This document shows, in pieces, positions 10,479 through 64,000 of a DNA stretch of 64,000 bases (positions are counted from its first letter, which is position 1; every line of letters starts with the position of its first letter). The notes under the pieces are model-generated. The model had not been told where the DNA came from, did no database searches, and was given only the letters and a program-made list of their open reading frames with translations. The position numbers and the translations under genes were made by a program. Origin of the DNA: Candidatus Uhrbacteria bacterium (GTDB lineage Bacteria; Patescibacteriota; Patescibacteriia; UBA9934; GWF2-40-263); contig JAERTI010000043.1 in NCBI GenBank assembly GCA_016844925.1, positions 197,110 through 261,109 on the forward strand, given 5' to 3'.

Positions 10479-11446
10479 GGTGTTCTCCAGGATGTAGCGG
10501 TTTCCAAGCGTCGCGTGTTGCGCAGGCCGATGAGGGCACCGGGAACGCAAGGGGAATTCGTTTCGATGGCTCGAGTGAATGCGCGGAGTTCCTGCTCATA
10601 GGGGTCAACGGTTTGGAATTCGACCGGGTTGCCGTTGAGCGTAATCACTCCTGCGCCGCGAGCTCCGAGCGTTTCCGTGCACAGGATTTCTGTGGTCTTG
10701 CTTTGCACAGAAATCGTGCGAGGCTTACGGGTGATGCCGCTGACAAACATGTCGACGAGTGGTCCGTCTGTGAATGCCATTGAGATCAGTGCCTGTTCAT
10801 CGCGCTGATGGTAGATCGCATTGCTCGAAAGGATCTTGATCTCGGGGCACCCGGATTCGTCACCGGTGATGAGCCAGGTGGCCAGGTCGATCAGATGCGT
10901 TCCGAGGGCGGAGAGCACCCACCAACGACCGAGTTCCCCACGGGCACGCCAGGGGGAGTCTTCTGGGTTCATCTGGTACGTCCAGTTCATGGAGATGCGG
11001 TGTAGTTGCCCAAGGTTCCCTGAAGCAATCTGTTGCCGCAGCCACTGGTGACCTGCGTGGTAGCGCAGGTGGTAGCCCACCTGGAGACGTACGCCCGCTG
11101 CTGATCTTGTTGAGAGCATGGCCAGGGCATCGTGCTCGTTGGTGGCCATGGGCTTTTCAACAAACACATGCTTGCCAGAGTTCATCAGAGTGATGGCCTG
11201 TGCGGCATGCAGTGCATCGGGACTCGCGATGATGACAGCGTCGATGGACGGATCCTGTGCCAGGGTGTCGAGCTTTGTGTAAACACGGCCCTGAACACTC
11301 AGGCCCTTGAGGAAGGCTTCGCCACGCGTGTGTGAGCGACTGAGTACGCCACAGAGACGGGCATGTTCAATCTTGCAAAGAGCGGGGCCCAGGTGGCGCG
11401 AGGCAACCTGACCAGTGCCAATGATGGCAAAACGGATGGGTTCCAT
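10475..11446 (-). CDS. Gfo/Idh/MocA-family NAD(P)-dependent oxidoreductase
   Basis: IRFAIIGTGQVA Rossmann motif, VFVEKPMA block; GGGAGG SD upstream of the ATG at 11446. Confidence 0.7.
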   Translation of the reverse strand: MEPIRFAIIGTGQVASRHLGPALCKIEHARLCGVLSRSHTRGEAFLKGLSVQGRVYTKLDTLAQDPSIDAVIIASPDALHAAQAITLMNSGKHVFVEKPMATNEHDALAMLSTRSAAGVRLQVGYHLRYHAGHQWLRQQIASGNLGQLHRISMNWTYQMNPEDSPWRARGELGRWWVLSALGTHLIDLATWLITGDESGCPEIKILSSNAIYHQRDEQALISMAFTDGPLVDMFVSGITRKPRTISVQSKTTEILCTETLGARGAGVITLNGNPVEFQTVDPYEQELRAFTRAIETNSPCVPGALIGLRNTRRLETATSWRTP

Positions 11447-11518
11447 GGTTCCTCCCATGAGCTGACGAATCGTCATCAACTCGTGGAAAAGGCCGAGCGT
11501 GCGTAGCTCGGCGAGGGG

Positions 11519-12673: not shown

Positions 12674-12812
12674 GATTCCTCCGAAGTGAGTGTTTCCTCA
12701 GCGTCACCCTAACAACCAGGAGCATTCTTTGTCAGCACCTGTGTCATAAATACAAACAGATAGAATGATTATCTTTATTTTCTTATGAAAGATTGATTAT
12801 TTTGTAAACAAG

Positions 12813-12830: not shown

Positions 12831-13559
12831 ATGGATGTGGATACAACGTTATTCAGTCAAATTGGTCTCTCTGAGCAACAAGGGAGAATCTATCTTGCCC
12901 TTCTTGAGGTGGGCGAAGGAAGTGTTGCCGAGGTGGCGCGTAGGGTTGGGCTGCATCGAGCGGTTATCTATAAAGATTTACCTGTCTTGCTCGAATTAGG
13001 AGTCGTTTCAATGGTTCTCCATGGAAAGCAGAAGCGTTATAAGGCTGCTCCTCTAAGAGTGCTCAAGCGTATTGAGAACGCTCGATCCGAATCATTTTTA
13101 GTTGAGTTGGAGGGGTTGATGAAAACGGTTCAGGGAACGCAAACGCCAGGCGTACAGATTCTGGAAGGAGCCAAGGGGTTGCAGCAAGTGATGGAGGATG
13201 TGCTTGCGACGCTTAAAAAGAGTGATGTTCTGTATCGCTATAGCTCCAGGGATCCAAAAACAGACATCAGCCTCTATGCGCCAAAAGACTATTCCATCAG
13301 ACGTCAGGCAAAAGGGTTTGATCAGTACACGATTACAAATCACGCACTGAAAACCTCTTCTCACATTAATCGAATGAATCGTGTTTCAAAGGAAGTGCCG
13401 GTTCAAGAAGATCTTTTTGAGTACAACATTTCGCTGCTTATCTATGGCTCTAAAGTTGCTGTTGTTGATTTTGATCGGGAGCAAGCTGTCATTCATGATA
13501 ATCAGGCGCTTGCAGATTTTCACAAAAGAATTTTTCTGTTGCTCTATCACCGTCTCTAG
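12831..13559 (+). CDS. TrmB-family winged-helix transcriptional regulator
   Basis: N-terminal LSEQQGRIYLALLEVGEGSVAEVARRVGLHRAVIYKDLPVLLELGVV. Confidence 0.6.
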   Translation: MDVDTTLFSQIGLSEQQGRIYLALLEVGEGSVAEVARRVGLHRAVIYKDLPVLLELGVVSMVLHGKQKRYKAAPLRVLKRIENARSESFLVELEGLMKTVQGTQTPGVQILEGAKGLQQVMEDVLATLKKSDVLYRYSSRDPKTDISLYAPKDYSIRRQAKGFDQYTITNHALKTSSHINRMNRVSKEVPVQEDLFEYNISLLIYGSKVAVVDFDREQAVIHDNQALADFHKRIFLLLYHRL

Positions 13560-13715
13560 TTGACAGATCATCTCAGTGAGCTACGCTTCTTACGTATGAA
13601 CAACACATGCCACAAGGGAATCATGCCACTCTTCGCGGATTACTCCGTGCAGAGTTTTTGTTTCTCGGGTGGTAGAGCTGTGATGTCGTAAGAGTGTCTT
13701 ACGTGATCAATGTTC

Positions 13716-13742
13716 AAACAACCCGGGAAACCGGGTTGTTTT
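13716..13742 (+). terminator. Intrinsic terminator
   Basis: aacaacccgg-gaaa-ccgggttgtttt. Confidence 0.55.
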
Positions 13743-13807
13743 GATTCTCGAATACGTCGAGGTCAATTAATTCACTTCTCTCCGACGATCGTGGGGTTCA
13801 CGATCGC

Positions 13808-15010
13808 TTGGTTAGAGTTACCCAAGACGGAGACACTATGTCTGCAGCACGCACGTACTACCTCTTCTTCGCGCTCATTTACATCGGCATGGGTTCGACC
13901 GTAACGGCCTACACGCCGTTCCTTCAGGAGATCGGCCTCTCGCTTGGCCAGATCGGCTTGGTGAACGCCATCTTCTGGACGGTGCTGATCGTCAGTGAGC
14001 TTCCCACAGGGATGATTGCCGACGGACGCTCACGGGCGTTCTCCCTCAAGCTGGGAGCGATCTTCTACGGCGTGGGTGCGCTCGGTTACACCCAGGCGAC
14101 GGGCTTCTGGAGCGCAGCGGCGGCTGAGTCACTCATTGCCATCGGTGGCGCGTTTGTCTCTGGTGCGGGTGCGGCGTGGATTGCTGATGCCTTGCATCGC
14201 GAAGGGCGGAGCGATGAGTTGCGGCACGTTTACGCCACTGAGTCGCTCATCAAGTCAGGTCTCATGCTCATCGGAGGGTTTGTTGGAGCGGCAATCGCTC
14301 TGGTGGACTACCGACTGATTTGGGTGCCGTTCGCCTTGAGCGCACCGGTGGCTGCCTACGTCGCTCATCGGCACATGAATGGTCAGGGGGAACCGCTCGA
14401 GTACGTCAGTGAGCTCACGGCCTTCCGGCTCGCCTTCGCACAGCTGCGACGCTCACGGGCTCTCATCTGGGTGATCGGTGCGCTCATCGTCTTCGGGGCG
14501 GTGATCTCGTTCAACCACTATTGGGCCATCTACTTCAAGGCTCAGGTGGGGCAGATGGGTCTCGCGCTGATCTGGCCGGTCATGTACCTGGGTCTCATTG
14601 GAGCCGCCCAGCTCGTGCGAAAGGCTCGCATTCCGCTCGGTGCTGAAGCAAAGCTCATCGTCCTGGCCGTGTTTGTGTCGGGGGTGGGTCTGGGACTCAC
14701 GGCCATGGCACCTGCACTGCTCTTCTCGATTCCTGCCTTGGTGGTGCATGAGTTTGGTCGAGGGCTCTTCCAGCCGCTCACTGACAGCTTTGTGCAGCAT
14801 CGCGTACACAGCAGCTACCGCGCGACCTTTGGTTCGCTCCAGTCCTTCTTGGGACGTATGGGGTTCGCCATTGTTCCAGTGGTTGTTTGGCTGAGCATCG
14901 AAGGGAAGCCCAACACCCCCGAGACGATCGAGTGGGTCTGGCTCGCTTGCGCCGCATTGCTGATCTTGGGTTCTGGCGCGCTTTGGTTCACGCGTCCGAG
15001 TGAACGCTGA
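13808..15010 (+). CDS. MFS transporter
   Basis: 12 hydrophobic helices; GMIADGRSR motif between TM2 and TM3. Confidence 0.7.
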   Translation: MVRVTQDGDTMSAARTYYLFFALIYIGMGSTVTAYTPFLQEIGLSLGQIGLVNAIFWTVLIVSELPTGMIADGRSRAFSLKLGAIFYGVGALGYTQATGFWSAAAAESLIAIGGAFVSGAGAAWIADALHREGRSDELRHVYATESLIKSGLMLIGGFVGAAIALVDYRLIWVPFALSAPVAAYVAHRHMNGQGEPLEYVSELTAFRLAFAQLRRSRALIWVIGALIVFGAVISFNHYWAIYFKAQVGQMGLALIWPVMYLGLIGAAQLVRKARIPLGAEAKLIVLAVFVSGVGLGLTAMAPALLFSIPALVVHEFGRGLFQPLTDSFVQHRVHSSYRATFGSLQSFLGRMGFAIVPVVVWLSIEGKPNTPETIEWVWLACAALLILGSGALWFTRPSER

Positions 15011-15013
15011 ACC

Positions 15014-15044
15014 AAAAAACCTCCCCACACGGGGGAGGTTTTTC
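15014..15044. terminator. Bidirectional terminator between the MFS gene and the HU gene
   Basis: aaaaaacctcccc-acac-gggggaggttttt. Confidence 0.7.
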
Positions 15045-15058
15045 TCATTCTAGTGAGT

Positions 15059-15349
15059 CTAGATTTCACGCTTTCCTTTCAAGGTGTCCTTCAAAGCCTT
15101 TCCAGCTTTGAACTTCGGCACGACAACGGATGGGATGGTGATCTTTTCTGATGGGTTCTGTGGGTTCACACCGATGCGTCCTTTACGCAAGCGTGCACTG
15201 AATGTTCCGAATCCAGCGATGGTGACCTCGTCACCGTTAACCAGTGTTCGGGTTACGATTTCTTCAAATGCGGCAATGAAATCTTCACCGAGTTTCTTTG
15301 AGATATCGAGTTTGTCTGCAAGCCGTGCAGCGAGCTCAGCTTTGTTCAT
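15059..15349 (-). CDS. hup: DNA-binding protein HU
   Basis: MNKAELAARLADKL...GFGTFSARLRKGRIGVNPQN is HU/IHF-like; start trimmed to M21 of the ORF. Confidence 0.85.
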   Translation of the reverse strand: MNKAELAARLADKLDISKKLGEDFIAAFEEIVTRTLVNGDEVTIAGFGTFSARLRKGRIGVNPQNPSEKITIPSVVVPKFKAGKALKDTLKGKREI

Positions 15350-15411
15350 ATAGTTGGATTTTGGAAGTGAGAATACCCGAAAGTTAGCAGAGAAATGCAC
15401 TATTGTCAATC

Positions 15412-16983
15412 TTACCTTGCGTATTCAATGACGCGTGTTTCTCGAATAACCATGACTTTTACCTCTCCAGGATAGGAAAGTTCCGCTTCAATTCTGTTGG
15501 CAACATCTTTCGCTAAGCGATACGCCTCTAGGTCACCAATGCGCTCAGGATTAATGAATACACGCACCTCGCGTCCGGCTTGAATGGCATAGGCTTTTTC
15601 TACACCATCGAATGCACTGGCAGTGCGCTCAAGTTCTTCCATGCGCTGAATGAATTGTTCCAAGCTTTGTTTTCGTGCGCCGGGACGTGCTCCGGAGATA
15701 GCGTCTGCGGCCTTTACGATCGCGCCCTCAATGGTGCGTGGGCGGTCTTCGTGGTGGGCGATGGACTGATAGCAAAGCTCCTCAGGGAAGCCGAATTTTT
15801 TCATGATGTTATAGCCGATCTCTGGATGGGCGCCCTGCATGTCGTGATCAACGGATTTTCCGATATCATGAAAGAGACCACCTTTCCTACAGTTAAAGCT
15901 ATCAGCTCCGAGGTCATCTGCCATCATGCCAGCGATCATTCCTACCTCGATTGAGTGCTGAAGGGCATTTTGTCCGTAGCTGGTTCGGTACTTCATGCGA
16001 CCGAGAATGGAGATTAGCTTTGGATCAATGGAGCCTACGGGGATGCCAAGCTGGTAGAGAGCCTCCTCACCAGACTTACGGAGATCCTTTGCAAGCGTCT
16101 TCTTCGCATTCATGACGCACTCTTCAATGCGAGCGGGATGGATGCGACCATCTTTAATGAGCTCGTCCAAGGCACGCTTGGCAACCTGACGACGGATAGG
16201 GGAGAAGCCGCTGACGGTGATCTGTCCGGGGGTATCGTCTACGATTACCTCCGTACCGGTCAGCATCTCAATGGCTTTAATGTTGCGCCCCTCTTTTCCG
16301 ATAACACGTCCTTTCATCTCTTCATTTGGAAGATCTACTTTTGTGGTGGTTGTCTCGGTGGAGACAGGGGAGGCGAATCGACTCAGGGCGAGTGAAAGGA
16401 CTTGGCGAGATTTCTTTTCAATCTCTTCTTCGCTCATGCGCTCTGCTTTGCGCAGACGGCTCATGAGAGACTCTTCGATGTCAGCCTCTACTTGCTTGAG
16501 CAGGTGCTCTGAGGCTTGTTCTGTACTCATGCCTGCAACTTCTTGAAGCTTAGCGAGCTGTTCATCTTTGAGCCCGGAGAGCTTCTCCTTGATACCTTCG
16601 ACTTCTTTTGTTCGTTGTTCAAGTTTGGTGGTCTTCTCTTCAACCTCCATCAACTTCTTGTCGAACATGTTCTCGCGCTTTTCCAATCGACGCTGTTGGT
16701 CTTGGATATCGCGACGACGGGCCTGCTCTTCGTGCTTAGCCTCGTCGATAATTTTCAAGGCCTTCTCTTTCGCCTTGATCAGAGCGTTCTGCTCTCGGGT
16801 CTTGGTCTCCTGAAGAATCTGTTGTTGCTTGTTCTTGGCGTCGGCAAGCATTTTCTCGGCTCGCGCTTCCGCTTCGTCCGCGGTGCGTTTTGCCTTGGCC
16901 TTGCGCAGGGCGTACCCCGCAGCAATTCCTATAAGCAACGCCACTAGGAACGGGATTATTTCGGTGAACATAAAACTTCTCAC
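15412..16983 (-). CDS. rny: Ribonuclease Y
   Basis: N-terminal TM helix, coiled coil, KH domain (GRVIGKEGRNIKAIE) and HD domain (HSIEVG...HDIGK). Confidence 0.85.
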   Translation of the reverse strand: MRSFMFTEIIPFLVALLIGIAAGYALRKAKAKRTADEAEARAEKMLADAKNKQQQILQETKTREQNALIKAKEKALKIIDEAKHEEQARRRDIQDQQRRLEKRENMFDKKLMEVEEKTTKLEQRTKEVEGIKEKLSGLKDEQLAKLQEVAGMSTEQASEHLLKQVEADIEESLMSRLRKAERMSEEEIEKKSRQVLSLALSRFASPVSTETTTTKVDLPNEEMKGRVIGKEGRNIKAIEMLTGTEVIVDDTPGQITVSGFSPIRRQVAKRALDELIKDGRIHPARIEECVMNAKKTLAKDLRKSGEEALYQLGIPVGSIDPKLISILGRMKYRTSYGQNALQHSIEVGMIAGMMADDLGADSFNCRKGGLFHDIGKSVDHDMQGAHPEIGYNIMKKFGFPEELCYQSIAHHEDRPRTIEGAIVKAADAISGARPGARKQSLEQFIQRMEELERTASAFDGVEKAYAIQAGREVRVFINPERIGDLEAYRLAKDVANRIEAELSYPGEVKVMVIRETRVIEYAR

Positions 16984-17195
16984 TACCGGAGAAGCTTTCG
17001 ATGAGTCTACATTGTGGCAAAAAGGATCCTACAACAACAAATCTTCCTGCTCAGAGGAAGAAGCTGAATGAATAGCTGTGTTGTCAGCAAAAGTATGCAT
17101 AGGGAAGCTTTTCACCTTCATCGAGAAGCGTCGTCCGGACTAACTATAGAATGGTGAATTACGCCTCCGAAGCGTAGCACCGGCCCCCTTCACTG

Positions 17196-17906
17196 TCAAA
17201 GCCGTTCTAGTAAATCTTGGACGGGAATCAAAGCAGGTTCTACGGCCCCCTCAAGGCTCTTAAGAGGGTGTGATTCATCGATCGAGAACGGTCCAATGGC
17301 CGTCCGGCGGAGCTCTTGAACATAGCCACCACCCCCAAGAGCGACTCCGAGGTCTCGAGCGATGGATCGGATGTATGTGCCAGAGGAAGAATGGATCGCA
17401 ACGCGTAAAGGTTCGGTCTCCAGTAGATCGATCGAATGAATCGTTATCTGTCGAGCAGCGGCCTTCATGGGCCTGCCCTTACGAGCCTCCTCGTACATTT
17501 TCTTTCCTCCTATTTTGATGGCGCTAAAGGCTGGGGGGACTTGTTCGATCTCGCCGACGAATTGATTGAGTGCTTCAGGGGTGAGTAGTTGAGAGAGAGG
17601 GGCCTCTTGAATGTTGCCCTCGCGGTCGTCGGTATCCGAGCTCGCTCCAAGGACAAACTCCGCCTCATACTTCTTGTCAAGCCCCACAAGCTGCTGCATC
17701 TGTTTTGTCGCCGCGCGCCCAACACCAACAATCAATAGTCCGGTCGCAAACGGATCGAGTGTTCCAGCGTGACCAACTTTCCGAATGCCTGTGTAACGTC
17801 GAACACGATCCACGACATCATGACTGGTCATGCCAGCGGGTTTATCAATAAGGAGGAAGCCTTGACGATCAAGCATTTTTTTCTTAGGGTCGGGTGTCTT
17901 AGACAT
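17196..17906 (-). CDS. truB: tRNA pseudouridine(55) synthase
   Basis: LLIDKPAGMTSHDVV ... GHAGTLDPFATGLL. Confidence 0.85.
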   Translation of the reverse strand: MSKTPDPKKKMLDRQGFLLIDKPAGMTSHDVVDRVRRYTGIRKVGHAGTLDPFATGLLIVGVGRAATKQMQQLVGLDKKYEAEFVLGASSDTDDREGNIQEAPLSQLLTPEALNQFVGEIEQVPPAFSAIKIGGKKMYEEARKGRPMKAAARQITIHSIDLLETEPLRVAIHSSSGTYIRSIARDLGVALGGGGYVQELRRTAIGPFSIDESHPLKSLEGAVEPALIPVQDLLERL

Positions 17907-17965
17907 AGCGTTAAGGATCTTACCGGATCTTCAGCGCTGTGGCTAAGGTCGGCTACTGATGCACT

Positions 17966-18616
17966 GTGCATGAGAACAGTCAGGCTACTGCAGCAGGAAG
18001 GAGCATGTCACTCATTGGACAGAGTTGGGAGCTCATGTCGGAGCTCGCCAAGCGTACCCCTTGGGGACGCATCAGAATTCAGCCCCTCATCGAGGACATC
18101 GGTCAGGTGAGCATGGAGTTCGTTGCGTTCCTGGAGAACGGTGGTCGCGTCTACCCCCGACAGGGTCCGGTTTTCGACTTCGACGTCGAGCCTTACATTC
18201 CGGACGGCTGGGAGATTCGTCCCGAGGATCAGATCACTAGTCGTCTGACGGGTTCTTGGCAGCTGGATGTCACGAAGGTTGGCCTGTACTCAAGCGAGAG
18301 GCAGCAGGGTCAGAAGACGGTTCGAGGCGTTGATCTCCTGTGTGAATTGGAAGGCAAGAGAGTCCTTCCTGCCCACGTGATCGAGGAGCTGCTTAAGTAT
18401 CCGGTAATGATTCCTGACTCCTGGAAGCACCGAAACGTGTATTTCTGGGGAACCGTTTATCGCGACGCTTCGGGGTGTCGGCAGATCCGAATTCTCAGCT
18501 GGACTGGCGCGCAGGGGTGGCACTGGAGTTCTCATTACCTCGAGCGTGACGATGGTACCCGTGTCATGCAAGGGCTCTGGACGAGCCAAGGGTATGCGGT
18601 ACACGTCGTAGACTAG
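17966..18616 (+). CDS. Hypothetical protein, paralogue of the 20194-20775 gene
   Basis: Shares FVxFxxNGGRV, PDGWxIRxEDQI, KVLPAHVxxxLLxxPxxIPxxWK and (V/I)YFWGTVYR blocks with the 20194 ORF. Confidence 0.5.
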   Translation: MHENSQATAAGRSMSLIGQSWELMSELAKRTPWGRIRIQPLIEDIGQVSMEFVAFLENGGRVYPRQGPVFDFDVEPYIPDGWEIRPEDQITSRLTGSWQLDVTKVGLYSSERQQGQKTVRGVDLLCELEGKRVLPAHVIEELLKYPVMIPDSWKHRNVYFWGTVYRDASGCRQIRILSWTGAQGWHWSSHYLERDDGTRVMQGLWTSQGYAVHVVD

Positions 18617-18648
18617 GACGTTCGTTTCCTACAGCATTTCGCGCATTG

Positions 18649-18695
18649 CCTCTCACAACCCGGCACGCGGGTCATGAGAGGTGTTTTTATTTTAT
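18649..18695 (+). terminator. Intrinsic terminator
   Basis: cctctca...tgagagg stem enclosing a cccg/cggg stem, followed by TGTTTTTATTTT. Confidence 0.6.
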
Positions 18696-18777
18696 TCCAA
18701 AATATTGAGGTTAATTGACACCAACCACCTCATCTAGTTAACTCCACGGCCTGAGGGACTCATAAAGGGGAGACGTT

Positions 18778-19974
18778 ATGACTCAAACAGAGCGACTGGC
18801 AAGAAATCCGCGGCTGCTCTTTTGGGGGCGTGCGTTGTTCGATGTGAAGATGCTCACCGCCGTGGTGGTGCTCTTCTATCTCCACCGGGGCGTGACCATC
18901 GACGAGGTGTTCTACCTGAGCATCGTCTGGTCCATCGCTTCTCTTCTGACGGAGGTGCCTTCCGGTTGGCTTTCCGATACGTTTGGACGCAAGCGTACCT
19001 TGCTCCTGGGAGCGGGGCTCATGGTTGCCTGTCAGGTGATCTACCTGTTCGCCCATGGCCCGCTCATGTTCATTCCCATATTCGTGTTGATGTCCGCAGC
19101 CTTCTCTTGTTTCTCAGGGACCGACGAGGCCCTGCTGTTCGAGAGTCTCAAGGCGTCCGGGCAAGAGGGGGAGATGACCAAGTTCAACGGCAGGCTCGCG
19201 TCTGCACGAACGTTGTTCAAGATCCTGACCCCGCTTATCGGCGCTTGGGTTGCCAAGGACTTGCTGGAGTGGCAGTTCCAGATCCTGATCTGGGTGAACA
19301 TCATCGCCGTGAGTGGTTCGGTGTTGTTCCTCTCTCGGCTGCACGAACCGCCTCAAGAGCTCTCTGTCTCGCAGATGGAGCTCGGGACGCTTCGTAAAGG
19401 CATCGCGACCATCAAGAGCCATCCCTGGCTCCTGCACGCGTCGCTCAACCGGACACTCCTATTCATCGGTGTGTTCATCACCTGGCGTGCGTACCAGCCA
19501 TTGGTTGTCGAGCAGGGGGTGGCCGTGGAGTGGCTCGGTGTGTTCGACTTCTTCGTCTACCTGTCTTTGTTCGCGGCCAAGTGGCACCTCGACAAGATCG
19601 TGGCGTGGATGGGCATGGCACGGTTCATGTTTGTCTCTGCGGCGACGGTCGTCTGCGCCCTTCTCGTGGCGATTCTCAGTCCGGCGGCCTGGGTTCAATT
19701 CCTGGCGCTTCTGGTTGTCATCTCGGTCGGCTCAGCGCGCTGGCCAGCATTCGCCCACGCGATAAATCACCGGATCGAGTCTGGTGCCAGGGCAACAACG
19801 CTCTCAGTACTCAACATGCTCAAGGGGGTCCTCGACATCCCCATTCTCCTGTTTGCAGGCTGGCTCGCTGGGCAAAGTCTCGTCTACTCGCTCTGGCTTG
19901 CACTAGCCCTGGCGATCATCACGATCCTCGCGTTTCCTATGCGGCAGCGCGATCTGACCGTTGAAACGGTCTAA
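18778..19974 (+). CDS. MFS transporter
   Basis: Multi-TM protein; DTFGRKRT motif. Confidence 0.7.
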   Translation: MTQTERLARNPRLLFWGRALFDVKMLTAVVVLFYLHRGVTIDEVFYLSIVWSIASLLTEVPSGWLSDTFGRKRTLLLGAGLMVACQVIYLFAHGPLMFIPIFVLMSAAFSCFSGTDEALLFESLKASGQEGEMTKFNGRLASARTLFKILTPLIGAWVAKDLLEWQFQILIWVNIIAVSGSVLFLSRLHEPPQELSVSQMELGTLRKGIATIKSHPWLLHASLNRTLLFIGVFITWRAYQPLVVEQGVAVEWLGVFDFFVYLSLFAAKWHLDKIVAWMGMARFMFVSAATVVCALLVAILSPAAWVQFLALLVVISVGSARWPAFAHAINHRIESGARATTLSVLNMLKGVLDIPILLFAGWLAGQSLVYSLWLALALAIITILAFPMRQRDLTVETV

Positions 19975-56835: not shown

Positions 56836-56898
56836 CCCCGGTTCGCCGGGGATTTTTGTTTGGAAAAGTAAAAACCCACCCGTCGTAGAGGGTGGGGG
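56836..56898. terminator. Convergent terminators: dtd on the + strand, nadE on the - strand
   Basis: ccccgg-ttcg-ccgggg-atttttg and aaaaacccaccc-gtcgtaga-gggtggg. Confidence 0.6.
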
Positions 56899-56904
56899 TG
56901 AGGC

Positions 56905-58866
56905 CTAGGCGGCCTCGAGGGCGTCCAGCTCGTCGAGCCAGACCTTGAGCAGGTTCACGTCCGGCGGAGCGCGCCAGTCGCCGCGGGGGGACAGCGCCAC
57001 CGAACCCATCTTGGGGCTCGAGGGGACGTTCTCCCGCTTGTACTGCATTCGGCTGAACCGCTTGTAGAACAGGCGGAGCCACTTGCGGATGGTGACCTGG
57101 TCGTAGGTGCCTTTGAAGGCGATGCCGGCCAGGAAGTCCGTCTTGGTGGCGCTGAAGCCGTGGCGCAGCAGGCACCAGAGGAAGAAGTCGTGCAGCTCGT
57201 AGGGGCCGACGATGTCTTCCGTCTTCTGTTCGATCTCCCCGGAATCGGGGCGCACCAGCTCGGGGCTGATGGGCGTGTCGACGATGTCGAGGATCGTGGC
57301 CGTGGCCTCGGGGAAGAGGTTCTTCTGCGCGACCCAGTTCACCACGTGCTTGATCAGCGTCTTGGGGATACCACCGTTGGGGTTGTACATGCTCTGTACG
57401 TCCCCGTTGTAGGTGCACCAGCCCAGGGCGATCTCGGAAAGGTCGCCGGTGCCGATCACGAAGCCCAGGTCCATGAGGATCTCGGTTCGCTCACGCGCCT
57501 GAGCGTTCTCGCACTTGAGGCACTTCCAGCACGGCTCGTGGCCGATGGCCTTGAGGCGGGCTGCCACCAACTCTTCGATGGGGATGACCTTGACGGTGAA
57601 GCCCAGAGCCTTGGGCAGGGCCGTGGAGTTGCGCAGAGTCCGCTCCGTGGTGCCGGGCCCCGGCATGGAAACGGCCGTCACGTCCTTGATGTCCCAGTCC
57701 ATGCGCTTGTACAGCTGGGCGAGCTCGAGGGCGGTGCAGGACGAATCCAGGCCGCCGGAGTTGCCGAAGACCACCTTGGGGCTCTGGCCGCGCCCCACAT
57801 GGAGCAATCGCCGGCGCAGGCCGATGATGGCGTGCATGAACACGTCATCGCAGCGTCGGTCCAGCGTCGCGGGGTTGCTGGGTACGAATGGGTGCGGGTC
57901 GATGCGTGCGTGCAAAGGCTTGTTCTTGAAGAACCAGTCGAGGCTGAAGGTCTCGACCTGTACGCGTCGCACGGGCGGGGCTTGGGCGATACACTCGCCG
58001 AAGCTGCCGGTGAAGATGCGTTCGTGGCGCAGTCGGCCGACGTCGATGTCTCGGATGAGCGACTGAGGCCCTTGCGCGAACCGTTCGGTCTGTCCGATCA
58101 CGTGCCCGCCTTGGGCGATGAGGCAGTGCCCATCGAAGACGACGTCTCCGGTGGACTCCTCGATGCCGCTGGCGGCGTAGACGTAGGCGCCGATCTGGTC
58201 GCCCGAGCGCTGCGCGATCATCTGTCGGCGGTAGTCCGCCTTGCCGATCTCGCTGTTGGATGCACTCAGGTTCACGATGATCTCGGCGCCAGCCACGGCC
58301 AGGAATGCTCCTGGCTGAATGGGGAGCCAGCCGTCCTCGCAGATCTCGACACCGAAGCTGCCGGCACACTGGCCGTCGAACATCAGGTCGAAGATCAGGT
58401 CGGTACCGACCGGCACCTCCTTGCCCAGCAGCGTCATGGTGCGCGACTTCAGGTGGCTCGCGGGCTTGAACCAGCGGGCCTCGTAGAAGTGCTTGCCATT
58501 GGCGAGCATGCTCTTGGGGATGACCCCGAGCACTTCGCCCATTTGGCAGACCACGGCGACGTTGAACAGCATGCCATCCATGACGAGCGGCATGCCGACG
58601 ACGATGACGGCCTTGACGCTCTCCGTCTTGGAGAGAAGCAAGCTCAGTGCCGCCAGAGCGGCGGTCTGCAGAGACGGCTTGAGGAACAGGTCACCGCAGG
58701 TGTAGCCCGTGAGCGAAAGCTCCGGGGTCACGATGAGCTGAACACCCTTCTCCATGCACGTGAGATCTTCGAGCTGTGCGATCTCCGCGGCATTGGCCAT
58801 GGGATCAGCAACGTGGACCGGTGGGACCACGGTAGCGACGCGGACGAATCCGAGGTTGGGTTCCAT
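56905..58866 (-). CDS. nadE: Glutamine-dependent NAD+ synthetase (nitrilase domain + NAD synthetase domain)
   Basis: N-terminal CN-hydrolase domain (VATVVPP...TPELSLTGY) and C-terminal PP-loop domain (GNSGGLDS); start set at MEPNLGF. Confidence 0.8.
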   Translation of the reverse strand: MEPNLGFVRVATVVPPVHVADPMANAAEIAQLEDLTCMEKGVQLIVTPELSLTGYTCGDLFLKPSLQTAALAALSLLLSKTESVKAVIVVGMPLVMDGMLFNVAVVCQMGEVLGVIPKSMLANGKHFYEARWFKPASHLKSRTMTLLGKEVPVGTDLIFDLMFDGQCAGSFGVEICEDGWLPIQPGAFLAVAGAEIIVNLSASNSEIGKADYRRQMIAQRSGDQIGAYVYAASGIEESTGDVVFDGHCLIAQGGHVIGQTERFAQGPQSLIRDIDVGRLRHERIFTGSFGECIAQAPPVRRVQVETFSLDWFFKNKPLHARIDPHPFVPSNPATLDRRCDDVFMHAIIGLRRRLLHVGRGQSPKVVFGNSGGLDSSCTALELAQLYKRMDWDIKDVTAVSMPGPGTTERTLRNSTALPKALGFTVKVIPIEELVAARLKAIGHEPCWKCLKCENAQARERTEILMDLGFVIGTGDLSEIALGWCTYNGDVQSMYNPNGGIPKTLIKHVVNWVAQKNLFPEATATILDIVDTPISPELVRPDSGEIEQKTEDIVGPYELHDFFLWCLLRHGFSATKTDFLAGIAFKGTYDQVTIRKWLRLFYKRFSRMQYKRENVPSSPKMGSVALSPRGDWRAPPDVNLLKVWLDELDALEAA

Positions 58867-58966
58867 GTGAGTCTCCAGTTGGAAGGTTCGTTTCAAACGT
58901 GAGAGCACGATCAGGCTTGATCTTGCGCTCGCGTAAAAGCTCGTGCGTGTCACGAGCAGGAGTGGA

Positions 58967-59659
58967 TCAAGGGGTCAAGTTTCCGAGGATCCAGGAGAGG
59001 TAGTGATCGCGTGTGTCGTCGGTCAGATTGCCAGAGATCCTCTGATCCACCATCTGGAAGAGAATCGTGGCACGCAACCACTGAGCGAACGCGAAGGTAC
59101 GAATCCCTTGGTGGACGGTGTCCGGGTCGATGAACTGGGAGATGGGCATGCGCACGCGATCGATGCGCTCACCTTCGTCCTTGTTCCCCAGGCCCGTCTC
59201 GGGTCCCGTGACCTGATCGTCCTCGACGAAGACCACGGAGAGGAAGGCTCGTTCGGCGAGGATGCCAGCCGACAAGCTCATCGAGTGACCGCCGTTGAGC
59301 ATCTGCACGTCCTCTTCGGTGATGGTCGTGCCACACTCTTCCAGCGCTTCCTTGACCAGCAGGGCCTTGGGGCCCAGGTCGACGTCGAAGCGCCCCGCGA
59401 CGGTCTCGGTTTCCGCGCCGGTGGGGTTCTCCTCCCGGCGCTGGGAGAGGTGCTCCTGGCGAATCAAGATGACCTCGCCGCGCGTGAGATCGACGAGCAG
59501 GCCGTTGACCGAGTTGCTGACCCGGACGACTTCACGGTTGAACCCGTGACCGTCGTTCCAGACCTCTACGACGCAGAAGCCTTCGTGCGCGAGAGCAACC
59601 ACCTCAGGGGGGTATTGTTCTTCGGACATGGTTCCTTCTCCAACGATGTCTCTCTGCAT
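58967..59659 (-). CDS. Nudix hydrolase (ADP-ribose pyrophosphatase-like)
   Basis: Nudix-box-like GRFDVDLGPKALLVKEALEECG; ~230 aa. Confidence 0.55.
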   Translation of the reverse strand: MQRDIVGEGTMSEEQYPPEVVALAHEGFCVVEVWNDGHGFNREVVRVSNSVNGLLVDLTRGEVILIRQEHLSQRREENPTGAETETVAGRFDVDLGPKALLVKEALEECGTTITEEDVQMLNGGHSMSLSAGILAERAFLSVVFVEDDQVTGPETGLGNKDEGERIDRVRMPISQFIDPDTVHQGIRTFAFAQWLRATILFQMVDQRISGNLTDDTRDHYLSWILGNLTP

Positions 59660-59710
59660 CGAGAGGCATCTTTGAAAAGGGGCGAGAGCGTGTCTCGCCG
59701 CCAGCGCGTG

Positions 59711-60781
59711 CTAGTACAGCACGTCGCCGTTGTGGTCCCAGTTGCGGTAGCCGTGGCCGTCGGGCTTGTGCACGATGGACTTCATCACGGTGCCGCCGTT
59801 GGCTTCCTCGCAGCGGGCGAACGTGACGTTCACGCCGTGGGAGGGATCCTTGAAGATGCCGCCGACCAGGAACACGGGCGTGCCCCAGGGGAGGGGGTTG
59901 CCCAGGCTCAGGCCATCCGGGTTGTCCGGGATTTCGGCGATGAGCTCGAACGCCTCCTGGAGGGGTCCGATGTCGATCCAGTTGTCGGCGTTCCACTGCA
60001 CGACTTCCTGGTTGCTGACCTGGTAGCTTTCGGGTCGCCAGACCTCGCGGATCACGACCATCTGCACACCCATGTCACCGAGCACACGGATGTAGTCCAT
60101 GATGTCGTCGACGTTCGCGATGCCCTCGCGGTTGATCACCAGCGAGGCACGCACGAGCAGTCCGAGCTCTCGGGCTTGCTTGATCAGCCCGATGGGGCTG
60201 TGCTTCTGCAGCATCAGCGCACGGTTTGTGTCCGGCTCGTGGTGAGCGATGGACAGCGTGATCATGGTGAGGCCGGCGTCGACCAGCTTCTTGAGCAGAT
60301 TCTCCTTGGGCATGCCCGGCAGCATCAGGTAGCCGTTGGTGTGCATGTCCACGAGCGGGACGTACTCACGTGCCGTACGGATGACGTCGATCAGGTAGTC
60401 GTCGTCCTCCTGCGTGGGGTCCGCCCGTCCGGTGAGGATGGCGTGACTGGCCCCGAGCTGCTTGGCGTAGCCGAGTCCGACGCGGAGTCGGTCCATGTTG
60501 AAGGTCTTGCGAGTGCGCGGGTCCACGTCCGTGGTTCCAGGGGTGGTGCGGCTGATGCAGAACTTGCATCCGGCCGTACAGCGAGGGTTGTCGCTCATCT
60601 GGAACGAGATCGACTGCGCGCGCATCTGGCCCGAGCCGTGTGCGATGGGACGGGACTCCTCCGGCTCCACGGAGGAGCTGGCGCGCGCGGCGCGGAGCGA
60701 GTGCAAGAACAAGGTGCCTGCAGCACGAAGCGTGCCGCGCAGGCCGAATCGGGATCGGGTCATGGCTGTCTCCTTCAGCAT
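59711..60781 (-). CDS. Radical SAM enzyme of unknown specificity with a ~50-aa N-terminal extension
   Basis: CTAGCKFC (Cx3Cx2C) motif, then G-rich and NG motifs; AAGGAGA SD 6 nt before the first ATG. Confidence 0.65.
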   Translation of the reverse strand: MLKETAMTRSRFGLRGTLRAAGTLFLHSLRAARASSSVEPEESRPIAHGSGQMRAQSISFQMSDNPRCTAGCKFCISRTTPGTTDVDPRTRKTFNMDRLRVGLGYAKQLGASHAILTGRADPTQEDDDYLIDVIRTAREYVPLVDMHTNGYLMLPGMPKENLLKKLVDAGLTMITLSIAHHEPDTNRALMLQKHSPIGLIKQARELGLLVRASLVINREGIANVDDIMDYIRVLGDMGVQMVVIREVWRPESYQVSNQEVVQWNADNWIDIGPLQEAFELIAEIPDNPDGLSLGNPLPWGTPVFLVGGIFKDPSHGVNVTFARCEEANGGTVMKSIVHKPDGHGYRNWDHNGDVLY

Positions 60782-60861
60782 CGTCCGCCCCAGGTTGGGG
60801 CAGGCGGTGAAAAGGGGCGAGGGGCATCGGGGTTGCCAATGTCTCGCCGCGTTGTGGTTGT

Positions 60862-62154
60862 TCAGACCGTCTGGAGGACGTTGTAGGTCTCCTCGTAGCC
60901 GAACACGCGCTTGTAGCGCTCGATCTCCTCGGGGTCACCGATCGCCTTGGCGATGTTGTCCGAGAGCTTGACCGTGCTGTACCAGGTGCCGCCCACGTAG
61001 CGGGCGTACCAGGGCTTGATGACCAGCGAGCGGGTCGGGAGACCCAGGTCGTTGGTCAGGTTGGTGCCCCAACCGAAGCTCACCTTGATGCGGCCTCGGA
61101 AGTGGTAGAACAGCTTCAGAATGGTCGGCAGGTCCAGGCCGTCCGAGAAGATGAGCATCTTCCCACGCGGGTCGATGCCGAAGCTCTCGTACAGAGCGAT
61201 GAGCATCTCACCGTAGGCGATGGGGTCGCCCGAATCGTGGCGGAAGCCCTTCCACTGTTCCAGCTGCTTGCGCAGGAAGTCGCGGAAGAAGGCCTTGGAA
61301 CCGAAGGTGTCGGTCAGTCCGATGGAGAGACCTTCGCCGTAGGTGGCCCACCAGATGTTCAGCATCTCCTGCTGGCTGGCGAGCAGGGCCTTGTCCGGGT
61401 CTTCTGCAGCGCCCGTGAGGGCCGCGATGATCATGGGCTTCTGGTGGCCGTTGGTGCCCATCGGAAGCAGATCGTGGAGCATGGCGGATTCGACGTTGGA
61501 CGTGCCCAGGAACTGGCCCTTCAGCACTTCGGCCATGACCTGGTCCACGTAGTGCTGCCAGGCTCGGAAGGCGCGACGGCGCGTGCCGAAGTCGCAGACG
61601 AGCAGTCCGGGATGCTTCTTGATCTCGAGGATCTTTTCCCAGAGGCGCTTCTTGCCCTCGGCAATGACCACGTCTCGCTCCAGGCGCGACATGCCTCGCA
61701 GGCTCTTGCGCGTACGCAGGCCATTGATGGATGCCAGGCCGGGGACTTCCCAGTGGATGCCCTTGGACCAGAGGCCCATGAAGCGAAGGTCGAGCTGACC
61801 TTCGGGGGTCTCTTCCAGACCGAAGGTTGGCCGCTGAAGCGTGCGAAGGTGATCCATGTACGCGGGACCGAACATCCGGTCTCCGTATTCGTCGGTGCCC
61901 AGCACGTAGTGCAGCTCGGTTCGCTTGAACCGGTCGTCTTCCAGCGTCTCGAGGGTGGCGGTCAGCTCGTCGACGTCCAGCTCTTCTGCCAGAGGAACGT
62001 CGGTGTTCCGGTTGGTCAGGCGGTAGTCGACTTCGACGTTGCCATAGTGCAGCACGATGGGTTGCCCCATCGAGTAGGTATAGAAGTCGTCATCGAGCAT
62101 GCCGCCGACGACAGGCCCTTCACATGCGGCTTCGACAAGAGGGTCGCTCAACAT
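60862..62154 (-). CDS. pncB: Nicotinate phosphoribosyltransferase
   Basis: DDDFYTYSM N-terminus, DFGTRRR and GTSN blocks typical of PncB. Confidence 0.75.
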   Translation of the reverse strand: MLSDPLVEAACEGPVVGGMLDDDFYTYSMGQPIVLHYGNVEVDYRLTNRNTDVPLAEELDVDELTATLETLEDDRFKRTELHYVLGTDEYGDRMFGPAYMDHLRTLQRPTFGLEETPEGQLDLRFMGLWSKGIHWEVPGLASINGLRTRKSLRGMSRLERDVVIAEGKKRLWEKILEIKKHPGLLVCDFGTRRRAFRAWQHYVDQVMAEVLKGQFLGTSNVESAMLHDLLPMGTNGHQKPMIIAALTGAAEDPDKALLASQQEMLNIWWATYGEGLSIGLTDTFGSKAFFRDFLRKQLEQWKGFRHDSGDPIAYGEMLIALYESFGIDPRGKMLIFSDGLDLPTILKLFYHFRGRIKVSFGWGTNLTNDLGLPTRSLVIKPWYARYVGGTWYSTVKLSDNIAKAIGDPEEIERYKRVFGYEETYNVLQTV

Positions 62155-62203
62155 GTCTTTCTCCAGGTTGATGGTACAACCCCGCGATGATGGTCATCAC
62201 GGG

Positions 62204-62264
62204 GAGAAATCTGGACTCGAGGGTCTCGAGCGCAGGTTTCTTGTAAATAGGTCGCGCCGCCGAG
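62204..62264 (-). promoter_or_regulatory. Conserved leader element, copy 1 (upstream of pncB)
   Basis: aaatctggActcgag-ggt-ctcgagCgcaggttt imperfect 34-nt palindrome plus a conserved taaatagg...ccgag flank; shared with the nadD::nadK leader. Confidence 0.5.
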
Positions 62265-62328
62265 CCGAGACGGTCTCGACAGGGCGGGCGACAGAGTTGA
62301 TCATGACACGTCGTTCGCGAGCGACGTG

Positions 62329-63771
62329 TCAGCTGGGGAAGTAGAGTCCCCGGATCTTGGCGGCCAGGTCGGTCTCGGGGAAGAAGCCGAGGGTGGCCGC
62401 GTGGGTGCGCGAGAGGCGCATGGAGATGCGGATCACGTTGCTCATGCGAACCTTGCCGTTGAGCAGAAGCTGCATGGGGCGCTTGTGAGCCTGTTCGATG
62501 TCCACGGTGACTTCATCCTGCGCGCTGAGGCGGGCGAAGTTCCAACGCTGACCACGGTAGGTGGTGCCAGCGCCGACGAGGACCATCTCGGGCGTGCCGG
62601 CCGTCAGAGGCATGCCGCCGTAGGAGCGAGCCCAGCCGGTAGAGCCGGCCGCGGTGGCGAGCATGAGTCCGTCTCCGGAGAGCCAGTCGAAGACGAGCTC
62701 GCCGTTGAGGTAGACCCTCATGGCCCCGCTCTGCACAGACTCGCCGTTGCTCATCGCGCGGATGAACGCCTCGTTGAACGCGAGTTCCTTGATCTGACTT
62801 CCATCCTGAGCCAGAGCACTGACTTCCAGCAGAGGCTGTTGGTACAGGTGCACGATACCGCGACGCAGACGCGCCTCGAGTTCATCGACGGTTCCGTCGT
62901 TGAGCAGGAAGCCGACGGTGCCGGCGTTCAGACCGATGGACGGCCGTGGGTCGCCGAGGTTTCCTTGCACGCAGTCGAGCTTGAAACCGTCACCACCAGC
63001 TTCGATCCTGTGCGTGATTGGACCTTGGGCGAGTGCGTAGACGCGATCACACATGAGTGCCAGTGCGACCTCGCGCTCGCGGCGCTTCGGATCCTTGCTG
63101 ACGTTTACCAGCACCTGCGCGCGACCAGTCAGCTTCTGGCGGACCGGTCCCAGGGCTGCACCGCTGGTGTACAGGCGCCACTGGCGCATGTATGCGGCAA
63201 CACCGCGAGAGACGAGGTGTTCGTACTCCTCGTGCAGACCGGCACAGTTGCGGATCTCCTTGCTGGAGCCGGCACGGGTGTCCTTGAGAATCAGGCTGCG
63301 CGGAGGTAGGTCGCTCTGGTTGAATCGATAGCCTGCCCTGGGCAGGAACAGGAACCGAGATTGGGACCAGAGCATCTGGCCCTTGTGCCAGCTCTTGTGG
63401 ATCTGACTGTTCTGCGTGGCGCCGTTCTCGATCAGGTCTCCACCGATGACGATCCAGACGTCGTGCCCAGCAACCTTCAGGCGCTCATGAATGTCCCAGG
63501 TGCGCTCGTACTCGTCACGCTCCAGGTCGCTTAGGTCCAGGATGATGCGCGGATCGCGATCACCGAAGGCGATGCGGCACATGTTGGCACGGTGCAGGGG
63601 AGTGGTGTCCCCGTTGCTCTCTTTGTCCGGTCGACCTCCACAGGGGATGATCAGCAGACGGTCATCGGGGGTCATGTTCTCCAGGATGATGTCCACCATG
63701 CTTTCATGGTGTTTCCCGGGCGGGTTGAAACTTCCACCGAGGAAGTAGGTCCGTCCAGACGGTGCGTTCAT
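62329..63771 (-). CDS. nadD: Bifunctional NadD-like nucleotidyltransferase / NAD kinase fusion
   Basis: N-terminus FLGGSFNPPGKHH and GSSKEIR...VAAYMRQWRLY (NadD/NMNAT-like); C-terminus AGGDGF, NAGTVGFLL, FNEAFIR...DGLMLATAAGSTGWARSYGG (NAD kinase-like). Confidence 0.65.
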   Translation of the reverse strand: MNAPSGRTYFLGGSFNPPGKHHESMVDIILENMTPDDRLLIIPCGGRPDKESNGDTTPLHRANMCRIAFGDRDPRIILDLSDLERDEYERTWDIHERLKVAGHDVWIVIGGDLIENGATQNSQIHKSWHKGQMLWSQSRFLFLPRAGYRFNQSDLPPRSLILKDTRAGSSKEIRNCAGLHEEYEHLVSRGVAAYMRQWRLYTSGAALGPVRQKLTGRAQVLVNVSKDPKRREREVALALMCDRVYALAQGPITHRIEAGGDGFKLDCVQGNLGDPRPSIGLNAGTVGFLLNDGTVDELEARLRRGIVHLYQQPLLEVSALAQDGSQIKELAFNEAFIRAMSNGESVQSGAMRVYLNGELVFDWLSGDGLMLATAAGSTGWARSYGGMPLTAGTPEMVLVGAGTTYRGQRWNFARLSAQDEVTVDIEQAHKRPMQLLLNGKVRMSNVIRISMRLSRTHAATLGFFPETDLAAKIRGLYFPS

Positions 63772-63820
63772 GGGTTCCTCCGAAGGTCAAAGGGCGGGGC
63801 TCCAAGACCGGGATGGTCGT

Positions 63821-63879
63821 GGAGTAAAATCTGGGCTCGACTGGATCGAGCGCAGGTTTTAAATAGGCCCGCTGCCGAG
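63821..63879 (-). promoter_or_regulatory. Conserved leader element, copy 2 (upstream of the nadD::nadK fusion)
   Basis: aaatctggGctcga-ctgga-tcgagCgcaggttt with the same flanks (ttaaatagg, ccgag). Confidence 0.5.
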
Positions 63880-64000
63880 GAGGAGTACTCCAAGGCGGGC
63901 GGGCAAGGGGTGTGAACTACGAGAGTCGCTTCGCCAGGATGGCGCCGCGGGACGCCATGGTCCACAGGCCGACGTGGTGCGCGGCCTCGCGCGGGTGGCC

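Follow-up and report, generated by a model that had tools for sequence, protein, structure and literature searches.

The NAD gene cluster and its spacers

The stretch analyzed here, termed the window, comprises 64,000 nt of contig JAERTI010000043.1 from a Candidatus Uhrbacteria bacterium, and its end (56900-64000) is occupied by a cluster of NAD genes on the minus strand. In order of transcription, these are a pncA-like isochorismatase gene (ending at about 63920 and extending past the window edge), a nadD::nadK fusion gene (63771..62329), pncB (62154..60862), a MoaA-like radical-SAM gene (rSAM, 59711-60781), a Nudix gene encoding a YffH/AdpP-like hydrolase (59659..58967), and a nadE of the glutamine-dependent type. 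The spacers preceding pncB and the fusion gene are the subject of this work. A first-pass annotation, made from the letters alone, had noticed in both a shared element of about 60 nt and had read it as a candidate NAD-responsive riboswitch or operator.

A promoter scan revealed no sigma70-like promoter on the gene strand within the cluster, including either of the two leader spacers. The sole promoter called was that of nrtR itself, a perfect TTGACA-16-TATAAT. The nrtR gene encodes an NrtR homologue of 224 amino acids (Nudix plus WHD_NrtR domains) and is located just past the window end (L001 8109-8783), directly 5' of pncA and two genes upstream of the fusion gene; L-numbers denote the loci or contigs compared. 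On the gene strand of the cluster, the terminator scan called a single canonical intrinsic terminator, at 56864..56896 (minus) 3' of nadE, which closes the operon. Ordinary genes of the same genome are followed by a terminator with a long T run, with a TTGAC promoter directly after it.

Two leaders share a series of predicted hairpins

The shared element proved to be real. Positions 62204-62264 and 63821-63879 are identical in 49 of 64 alignment columns, and local alignment of the whole spacers gave a score of 47, compared to 13.2 +/- 2.5 (maximum 22.5) for shuffled sequences. The pattern AAACCTGCGCTCGA-N5-TCGAGNCCAGATTT occurs exactly twice in the 64 kb (62207-62239 and 63827-63859), with zero occurrences expected. 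The first-pass annotation had described its core as an imperfect 34-nt palindrome able to form a hairpin, and this was upheld at a length of 33 nt, with the identical two mismatches (C.A and C.C) and a differing loop in the two copies. Both leaders folded much better than their own shuffles, with z-scores of -6.3 for the pncB leader (copy 1) and -5.6 for the fusion-gene leader (copy 2).

Read on the gene strand, both spacers present the same series of elements: a hairpin (H1), the linker CUAUUUA, the palindromic hairpin (H2), a further hairpin (H3), an open CA-rich stretch, the Shine-Dalgarno (SD) sequence, and the AUG. All coordinates that follow are on the minus strand. In copy 1, the long module, meaning linker, H2, and H3, spans 62180..62257 and was matched by the covariance model R1 described below with 75.5 bits (E 4e-17); on the plus strand the same copy reached just 22 bits. 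H1 is a GC-rich, terminator-like hairpin predicted by folding (GUCGCCCGCC...GGCGGCGCGAC, 62251..62292), and is joined to H2 by the U-rich linker CUAUUUAC (62243..62250). H2 (62205..62242), found by folding, pattern search, and covariation, is built from a basal AAGAAAC/AUUUCU stem, the C.A mismatch, CUG/CAG, the C.C mismatch, and CUCGAG/CUCGAG closed by the loop ACC. H3, identified by folding and covariation (CCCCGUGAUGA-CCA-UCAUCGCGGGG, 62180..62204), is the 11-bp hairpin that had already been noted after copy 1. The CA-rich spacer UUGUACCAUCAACC, the SD sequence GGAG, and the pncB AUG (62152..62179) are unpaired in the consensus fold. Copy 1 additionally has, directly 3' of the fusion-gene stop codon, an extra predicted hairpin H0 (CACGUCG...CGACGUG, 62307..62328), which occurs in this copy of this genome alone and is missing from relatives including L002 and L005.

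Copy 2 follows the same plan. Its long module (63800..63873) was matched by R1 with 62.1 bits (E 1e-13). H1 (GCCCGCCCGCC...GGCAGCGGGC, 63867..63904, by folding) is followed by the linker CUAUUUA (63860..63866), by H2 (AAACCUGCGCUCGA-UCCAG-UCGAGCCCAGAUUU, 63827..63859, by pattern search and folding), and by H3 (CUCCACGACC-AUCCC-GGUCUUGGAG, 63800..63824, by folding), a counterpart that the first-pass annotation had overlooked. The spacer, the SD sequence GGAGG, and the AUG of the fusion gene occupy 63769..63799.

H1 resembles the terminators of this genome but is followed by only three to four U. With a criterion of a GC-rich hairpin plus at least five U, no terminator-like site was called on the gene strand of either spacer, where H1 is succeeded only by CUAUUUA or CUUUUCA; the same scan does call canonical terminators elsewhere in the window.

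A CA-rich motif resembling YUCAAC is found 5-12 nt 5' of the SD sequence in most leaders (62165-62179 and 63782-63799 in the window), and the similar UUUCAA is present in the linker. Possible roles for the motif are those of a standby site, an enhancer, or an additional recognition element.

The hairpins covary among related loci

In the orthologous spacers of close relatives, the outer arms AAACYTG and CCAGMTTT are kept, and the inner stem of H2 is altered on both sides, to CTCAA/TTGAG in L005 and to GGTTCAC/GTGAACC in L002. The H2 loop is enlarged by an insertion of about 76-109 nt in L002/L003. Distant clusters, with fusion proteins 38-46% identical, have the same architecture 5' of the fusion gene, of pncB, and of an ADP-ribosylglycohydrolase gene. 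Every relative possesses an equivalent of H1, with sequences that are unrelated between genomes.

Fourteen copies were aligned with MAFFT without any fitting to structure. In this alignment 87% of cells pair, compared to 30-48% when the partners are slid, and 15 of the 22 pairs have changed on both sides. The model R1 was built from the same alignment and recovered copies outside its seed in L016, L019, L023, L028, L097, L103, L108, and L109. In the final set of 24 distinct copies from 16 loci, 90.8% of cells pair (32-50% in slid controls), 17 of the 22 pairs are changed on both sides, and the observed values were matched by none of 500 shuffles. The 24-copy alignment was fitted to the model and is hence biased toward it; the unfitted 14-copy result and RNAalifold concur with it. 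RNAalifold, run independently, predicts both H2 and H3, and in H3 seven of eight pairs are double-changed, with the family consensus CCYCAYGA...UCRUGRGG. The covariation-like pattern that the first-pass annotation had seen in two copies extends to the arms of 24 copies at 16 loci.

Conservation goes beyond pairing. The most conserved single-stranded stretch is the linker, in which AUUU is conserved and U9 and U11 are near-invariant in a 19-sequence alignment. The base of H2 is likewise conserved as AGAGAC or AAAC followed by CUG...CAG-A, with the C.A mismatch present in 10 of 19 copies; above it lies a pyrimidine-rich (Y.Y) mismatch, and the tip is variable. The pairs U28-A, A36-U, and A67-U are invariant beside neighbors that covary freely. 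The sequence of the stems is kept across genomes 33-46% identical and between junctions that are not orthologous. The orientation of the module is always that of the genes, and its distance to the SD sequence is fixed. The SD region is open in the consensus fold; in single-sequence ensembles the SD is often paired, with partners that differ from leader to leader. Covarying structure with fixed orientation 5' of functionally related genes is what characterizes a structured cis-regulatory mRNA leader, and the element has these properties.

Structured insertions of about 30-110 nt in the H2 loop were observed in L002 (3195-3300), L003 (about 2060-2232), L109 (1648-1750), and L017 (11412-11505), and the L003 loop has an additional internal duplication relative to L002.

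The module is restricted to NAD operons

R1 was searched against the window and about 1.6 Mb of related and unrelated loci, made up of 11 related loci searched together with the window (223 kb), further fusion-gene loci (476 kb), and unrelated genomes (810 kb). Matches were found only in the leaders of nadD::nadK (9), pncB (9), the ADP-ribosylglycohydrolase gene (4), and an unnamed conserved cluster gene (2). The two copies described above were the only matches in the window, both on the gene strand, and the 810 kb of unrelated genomes gave no match under E = 0.47. We also scanned metagenome contigs with the sequence pattern, blind to gene content, and obtained 14 loci. Three of these, with five model matches at 58-67 bits, were all in NAD clusters; one further locus, without any NAD-cluster reference protein, reached 20 bits only, and the remaining loci had no R1 match at E<=0.01. 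No match to the element was found in viral contigs.

These searches bear on a generic repeat, which the first-pass annotation had considered in the form of copies scattered in front of unrelated genes. Every model-supported copy in the approximately 1.6 Mb lies in an NAD cluster. The many copies regardless of function that typify a repetitive extragenic palindromic (REP) sequence or bacterial interspersed mosaic element (BIME) were not seen, with two full copies in 64 kb, a count that comes from loci and not from a complete genome.

A REP/BIME-like selfish repeat, or a cassette boundary involved in the gain, loss, and shuffling of NAD genes, would account for several features of the cluster. 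H2 copies are identical or near-identical within one genome and differ from their orthologues in other genomes (L001, L005, and L103), the gene content of the cluster differs between relatives, the cluster forms a GC-rich island, and the H2 loop accepts insertions, as integron attC sites do. We nonetheless regard such an element as improbable, since no copies were found outside NAD operons in the searched loci, no recombinase gene is adjacent, there are no viral matches, and orientation and SD distance are fixed. The core sites of integron attC are RYYYAAC/GTTRRRY. The basal stem of H2, AGAGAC/AAAC...UCUCU/UUU, is unlike these when compared by eye, with no dedicated attC model run, and no integrase family was present among the called neighbor genes. 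A phage origin was set aside, as no viral contig matched and the flanking genes are ordinary cellular ones.

The within-genome pairs of H2 are L001 9913-9945 and 11533-11565, L005 9916-9948 and 11509-11541, and L103 3000-3078 and 4282-4361. Their sameness suggests either gene conversion between spacers or co-evolution with one trans-acting factor.

Shorter relatives occupy other junctions

The element had been reported as absent from all other intergenic regions of the window. This is correct for the full motif, which is confined to the two spacers, but four other spacers contain shorter relatives. The short module consists of H1, then CUUUUCA, CUUUUA, or CUUUCC, then one hairpin with the base CCACGAG...CUCRUGG, often with a C.A mismatch, and then the SD sequence. 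On the minus strand, such modules lie between pncB and rSAM (H1, CCUUUUCA, and a hairpin; 60785..60861), between rSAM and the Nudix gene (H1, CCUUUUCAAA, GAUG-C-CUCUC...GAGAG-A-CAUC, and SD; 59630..59702), and between the Nudix gene and nadE (H1, CUUUUA, ACG-C-GAGC...GCUCUC-A-CGU, and SD; 58867..58956). The fourth lies 50 kb from the main NAD cluster, in the nadA operon between nadA and a GFO/IDH/MocA oxidoreductase gene (GCCGAGC...GCUCGGC CUUUU CCACGAG...CUCAUGG GAGG; 11444..11512).

The short modules were traced with the 10-mer TTTC[CA]A[CT]GAG and by inspection, their alignment being too uneven for a covariance model. Together with a preceding GC-rich hairpin, this 10-mer was found in NAD operons only, in 1.64 Mb. 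In this genome the sequence UUUUCCACGAG-YUGAUGAC...GCUCAUGG precedes the oxidoreductase gene in the nadA operon; in L097/L103 it precedes nadE, and a close variant (...CUGACAAC...) coincides with the nadE start called in L010. Some form of the module is present at almost every junction of the NAD clusters. A crude regular expression for the H3 core (C-CRYGA...TCRYG-G) was also tried for counting modules and was discarded as unspecific, with 15 matches in 132 kb inside clusters and 42 in 493 kb outside.

An element separate from the candidate NrtR sites

The first-pass annotation had left open whether the element is a cis-acting RNA or the operator of a dimeric transcription factor. The RNA alternative is favored by the covarying arms, the loop insertions, the second hairpin, the orientation, and the occurrence in NAD clusters only, and the operator alternative found no such support. 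A palindromic DNA operator for a dimeric factor of the NrtR, NiaR, or NadR type, which would block transcription inside the operon, could be proposed from the imperfect inverted repeat adjoining NAD genes and from the NrtR homologue encoded two genes upstream. Sites of NrtR are mostly 21-bp palindromes with a GT-N7-AC core (PMC2330246). The palindrome here has the center CG-N7-CG and a length of 33 nt. Its conserved arms lie between 17-21 nt and more than 100 nt apart, with expansions of 30 to 110 nt in L109, L017, and L002/L003. The sequence between the arms covaries to maintain pairing, which a protein operator would not need, H3 is a separate covarying hairpin of fixed orientation, and no promoter is nearby. 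The covarying spacer, the variable arm spacing, the separate H3, and the missing promoter leave the double-stranded operator without support, and we consider it very improbable.

A box that does fit NrtR lies elsewhere. Eleven of 18 loci have the sequence (T)AGTGTA-N5-TACA, with a GT-N7-AC core, 20-90 nt 3' of nrtR, and it is nearly absent elsewhere; in this genome it is located between nrtR and pncA (L001 8072-8086). Related boxes overlap the nrtR -10 region in L001 (8833-8851) and in L011, and another lies upstream of nadA in the window (12741-12755). The GT-N7-AC boxes are probably the real NrtR operators. The likeness of the present element to an NrtR operator is that of an inverted repeat in an NrtR-linked NAD cluster; it differs in length, core, variable spacing, and a covarying spacer, and the NrtR-type boxes proper are those at the nrtR and pncA promoters and upstream of nadA. 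Most likely, NrtR acts at promoters and the RNA element constitutes a second layer. The Nudix gene of the window (59659..58967) was dismissed as a candidate NrtR, as its YffH/AdpP-like product lacks a winged-helix domain and the true homologue is encoded past the window end.

The assignment to sense RNA is based on the fixed orientation, the position between stop codon and SD sequence, and the operon context. Wobble pairs are not part of this basis: their asymmetry was tried for strand assignment and was uninformative, with 17 G.U and 17 A.C. The possibility that CCTATTTA(C)AA contains a TATA box of archaeal type or a bacterial -35/-10 was rejected, as the organism uses consensus sigma70 promoters and no -10 is present at the right distance. 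Taken together, the DNA-level readings are unlikely.

Comparison with known RNA families

The first-pass annotation had raised the published NAD+ riboswitches and proposed a check against Rfam, which gave no match to the NAD+-I or NAD+-II models. Across the whole window, Rfam identified only two tRNAs at the gathering score, and nothing relevant was obtained in 58900-64000 at E<=10. Literature searches, including those for NrtR with Patescibacteria and for pncB-associated riboswitches, retrieved no description of such an element.

NAD+-I has a ACANCCCC bulge in tandem bulged stem-loops (PMC7297122). This mark is absent from the gene strand of both leaders, and its sole nearby match, 62176-62183, is on the opposite strand. 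That the module is a diverged member of NAD+-I (the nadA motif) or NAD+-II (the pnuC motif) could be proposed from the tandem hairpins before NAD genes, which loosely recall the two bulged stem-loops of NAD+-I. The lack of an Rfam match and of the bulge on the gene strand, and the closest named relatives, which are metagenome-assembled genomes (MAGs) of the Candidate Phyla Radiation (CPR) and not Acidobacteria or pnuC-motif taxa, make this the least probable of the explanations weighed here, and a very remote one. The module is like NAD+-I in being a structured cis element before NAD-biosynthesis genes with adjacent, internally irregular stem-loops; it differs in its repeated placement between cistrons and before salvage genes, in phylum, and in not matching the model. 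With NAD+-II it shares an NAD-pathway link near the SD sequence; it differs in gene set, and lacks a model match and a conserved SD pseudoknot. The latter statement comes from an SD that is unpaired in the consensus and has inconsistent partners, a weak test, as the folding tools used do not predict pseudoknots.

Reiterated protein-binding RNA sites within one operon are known from the PyrR binding loops of the pyr operon and the ANTAR dual hairpins of eut operons. The module resembles these in that one conserved hairpin is repeated before several cistrons, an arrangement suited to a single controlling trans-acting factor. PyrR and ANTAR sites overlap and precede a terminator, whereas here the terminator-like hairpin comes first and no antiterminator logic is visible. 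Several short resemblances were set aside as present in some copies only or too short: the PyrR-site resemblance UCCAGAGA in a few copies, an ECF-type GAAC in some H2 loops, and a DarT TNTC/TTTW motif in the linker.

Proposed role of the module

We favor, at about an even chance, a reading that takes the 33-nt palindrome as hairpin H2 of a new cis-acting RNA module, specific to the NAD regulon and recognized by a ligand or a protein; that chance divides about equally between a metabolite and an RNA-binding protein. The existence of a trans-acting factor is argued from the restriction to NAD operons at two separate loci, together with the conservation of stem sequence and the invariant pairs, and from H1, where only structure would matter and the sequence has wholly diverged. 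The analyses establish the covarying structure, the gene-strand orientation, the confinement to NAD genes in the loci searched, the lack of an Rfam match, and the existence of separate NrtR boxes. Three elements of this reading are inferred: that the module works at the RNA level and not as single-stranded DNA, that it is bound by a specific factor, and what its output is. That it is an NAD-responsive riboswitch is unproven.

In the mechanism we propose, pncA, nadD::nadK, pncB, rSAM, Nudix, and nadE would be transcribed as one polycistronic mRNA from a single operon promoter 3' of nrtR, which would bear the candidate NrtR box, and would end at the one canonical terminator. Each full module would run from the stop codon through H1, the U-rich linker, H2, H3, and the CA-rich open spacer to the SD sequence and AUG, with H2 comprising the base AGAGAC/AAAC-CUG...CAG-A-UCUCU/UUU, the C.A and Y.Y mismatches, and a variable tip. 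A trans-acting factor dedicated to the NAD regulon would recognize the conserved sequence of H2 and H3. This factor could be a pathway metabolite, in the manner of a riboswitch, or an RNA-binding protein following PyrR/ANTAR-like logic, and once bound it would control how the downstream cistron is translated, how stable it is, or both. H1 and the linker would divide up the message, through partial termination or cleavage and by protecting the 3' end of the upstream cistron. Regulation by NrtR would be separate, at the level of promoter DNA.

Several observations weigh against recognition by a ligand or protein. We found neither a conserved alternative pairing nor a helix that sequesters the SD, and no conserved expression platform is visible; sequestration of the SD by an anti-SD in the 3' arm of H2 or the 5' arm of H3 was considered and rejected, as the predicted SD partners are inconsistent between leaders. 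Conserved unpaired nucleotides are few, below the number in typical aptamers, and riboswitches are not usually repeated at nearly all junctions within a single operon. The wobble pairs do not reveal the strand, the conserved C.A being a G.U on the other strand. The cluster in the window has no evident candidate RNA-binding protein. Finally, the spacers may share their ancestry within one GC-rich island, which could account for part of the NAD specificity.

The strongest competing explanation is a constitutive mRNA punctuation module that senses nothing and fixes expression ratios within the operon. H1 would then provide 3' protection of the upstream cistron or partial termination, the AU-rich linker would be an RNase Y-type cleavage site, and H2 and H3 would shield the 5' end so created, leaving the CA-rich standby site and the SD open. 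Such a role would agree with some form of the module at almost every NAD-cluster junction, with the resemblance of H1 to the genome's terminators with a shortened U tract, with the linker as the best-conserved single-stranded stretch, and with an SD that is unpaired in the consensus and shows no switch; the window also contains an RNase Y gene (15412-16983). Intercistronic processing and stabilizer hairpins are exemplified by the RNase III sites of T7 early mRNA, the RNase Y processing of cggR-gapA, and REP stabilizers, and the present module is similar to them in its stereotyped hairpins at cistron junctions beside an AU-rich single strand. Such hairpins are not known to be specific to a pathway or to keep their stem sequence across distant genomes. 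The module differs in both respects. A general nuclease or stability role would be expected in other operons, and no copy was found in others in the 64 kb or in the flanks of related loci; pure structure would not require stem sequences to be conserved across 33-46% identical genomes and non-orthologous junctions. We regard constitutive punctuation as a serious possibility, though one clearly less probable than recognition by a ligand or protein.

More specifically, and tentatively, the module might represent a third NAD-pathway riboswitch class, one peculiar to the CPR, or else the RNA operator of a novel RNA-binding protein that responds to NAD; reiterated before each cistron of the salvage operon, it would exert two-layer control with NrtR. 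We describe the module as a new RNA family whose general kind is known and whose reiterated intercistronic layout in CPR NAD operons is unusual.

The CPR or Patescibacteria are uncultured bacteria with reduced genomes and a dependence on salvage, and very little is known of their gene regulation. A pathway-specific, strongly covarying RNA module running through the NAD operon offers a concrete, testable handle on post-transcriptional control in this group. Should the module bind a metabolite, it would form a new class of NAD-pathway riboswitch beside the two known ones, which recognize parts of NAD+ only; should it bind a protein, a new RNA regulon would be defined. Constitutive punctuation, if true, would illustrate the partitioning of a long, GC-rich operon of foreign appearance into cistrons that are tuned separately. 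Control at both the DNA and RNA levels would make for two-layer NAD homeostasis in ultra-small symbiotic bacteria.

Other features of the cluster and the window

The NAD cluster has a G+C content 5-14 points (mostly 7-10) above that of its flanks and of nrtR. This GC-rich island was seen in all module-carrying relatives compared (L001, L005, L008-L011, and L015-L017), whose genomic backgrounds differ in composition, and the pattern fails in a more distant clade (L018, L019, L022, L023, and L027). The neighborhood in relatives consists of an acyltransferase gene, a gene for a 119-residue protein, nrtR, and the NAD cluster, followed by dtd in L001, L002/L003, L005, and L009. The contents of the cluster vary among relatives, which are labeled Parcubacteria, Uhrbacteria, Falkowbacteria, or "Patescibacteria group."

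The NadD::NadK fusion protein is rare, with 26 clusters among 5.8 billion proteins. Its closest full-length relatives are nearly all from CPR MAGs, and more distant ones (29-35% identity) are from MAGs of Desulfobacterales, Blastocatellia, and Planctomycetes. Both the NadD and the NadK halves score far under the curated cut-offs of the standard models. The rSAM gene is a conserved member of the NAD cluster, at 66-70% identity in L016, L017, and L028, and several other conserved cluster genes, encoding proteins of about 190-220, 277, and 380 residues, are without a Pfam family. In L011, the public gene calls for 12843-19717 are on the wrong strand; the plus strand there continues the NAD cluster with a second-type nicotinate phosphoribosyltransferase, a phosphoribosyl pyrophosphate synthetase-like protein, a nucleoside hydrolase, and others.

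The nadA operon of the window (9528-12673, minus) includes, besides nadA and the oxidoreductase gene, a gene for a 340-residue protein without a family, which is joined to the oxidoreductase gene by an ATGA overlap; neither nadB nor nadC was identified. Divergent from nadA is a gene for a TrmB-family regulator (12831-13559). On the plus strand, 44087-53560 holds six tandem open reading frames of about 500 codons each, one of which was scanned and had no Pfam family. Most of the six are followed by a hairpin terminator, with a TTGAC-type promoter-like site next at the junctions inspected, a layout that contrasts with that of the NAD operon.

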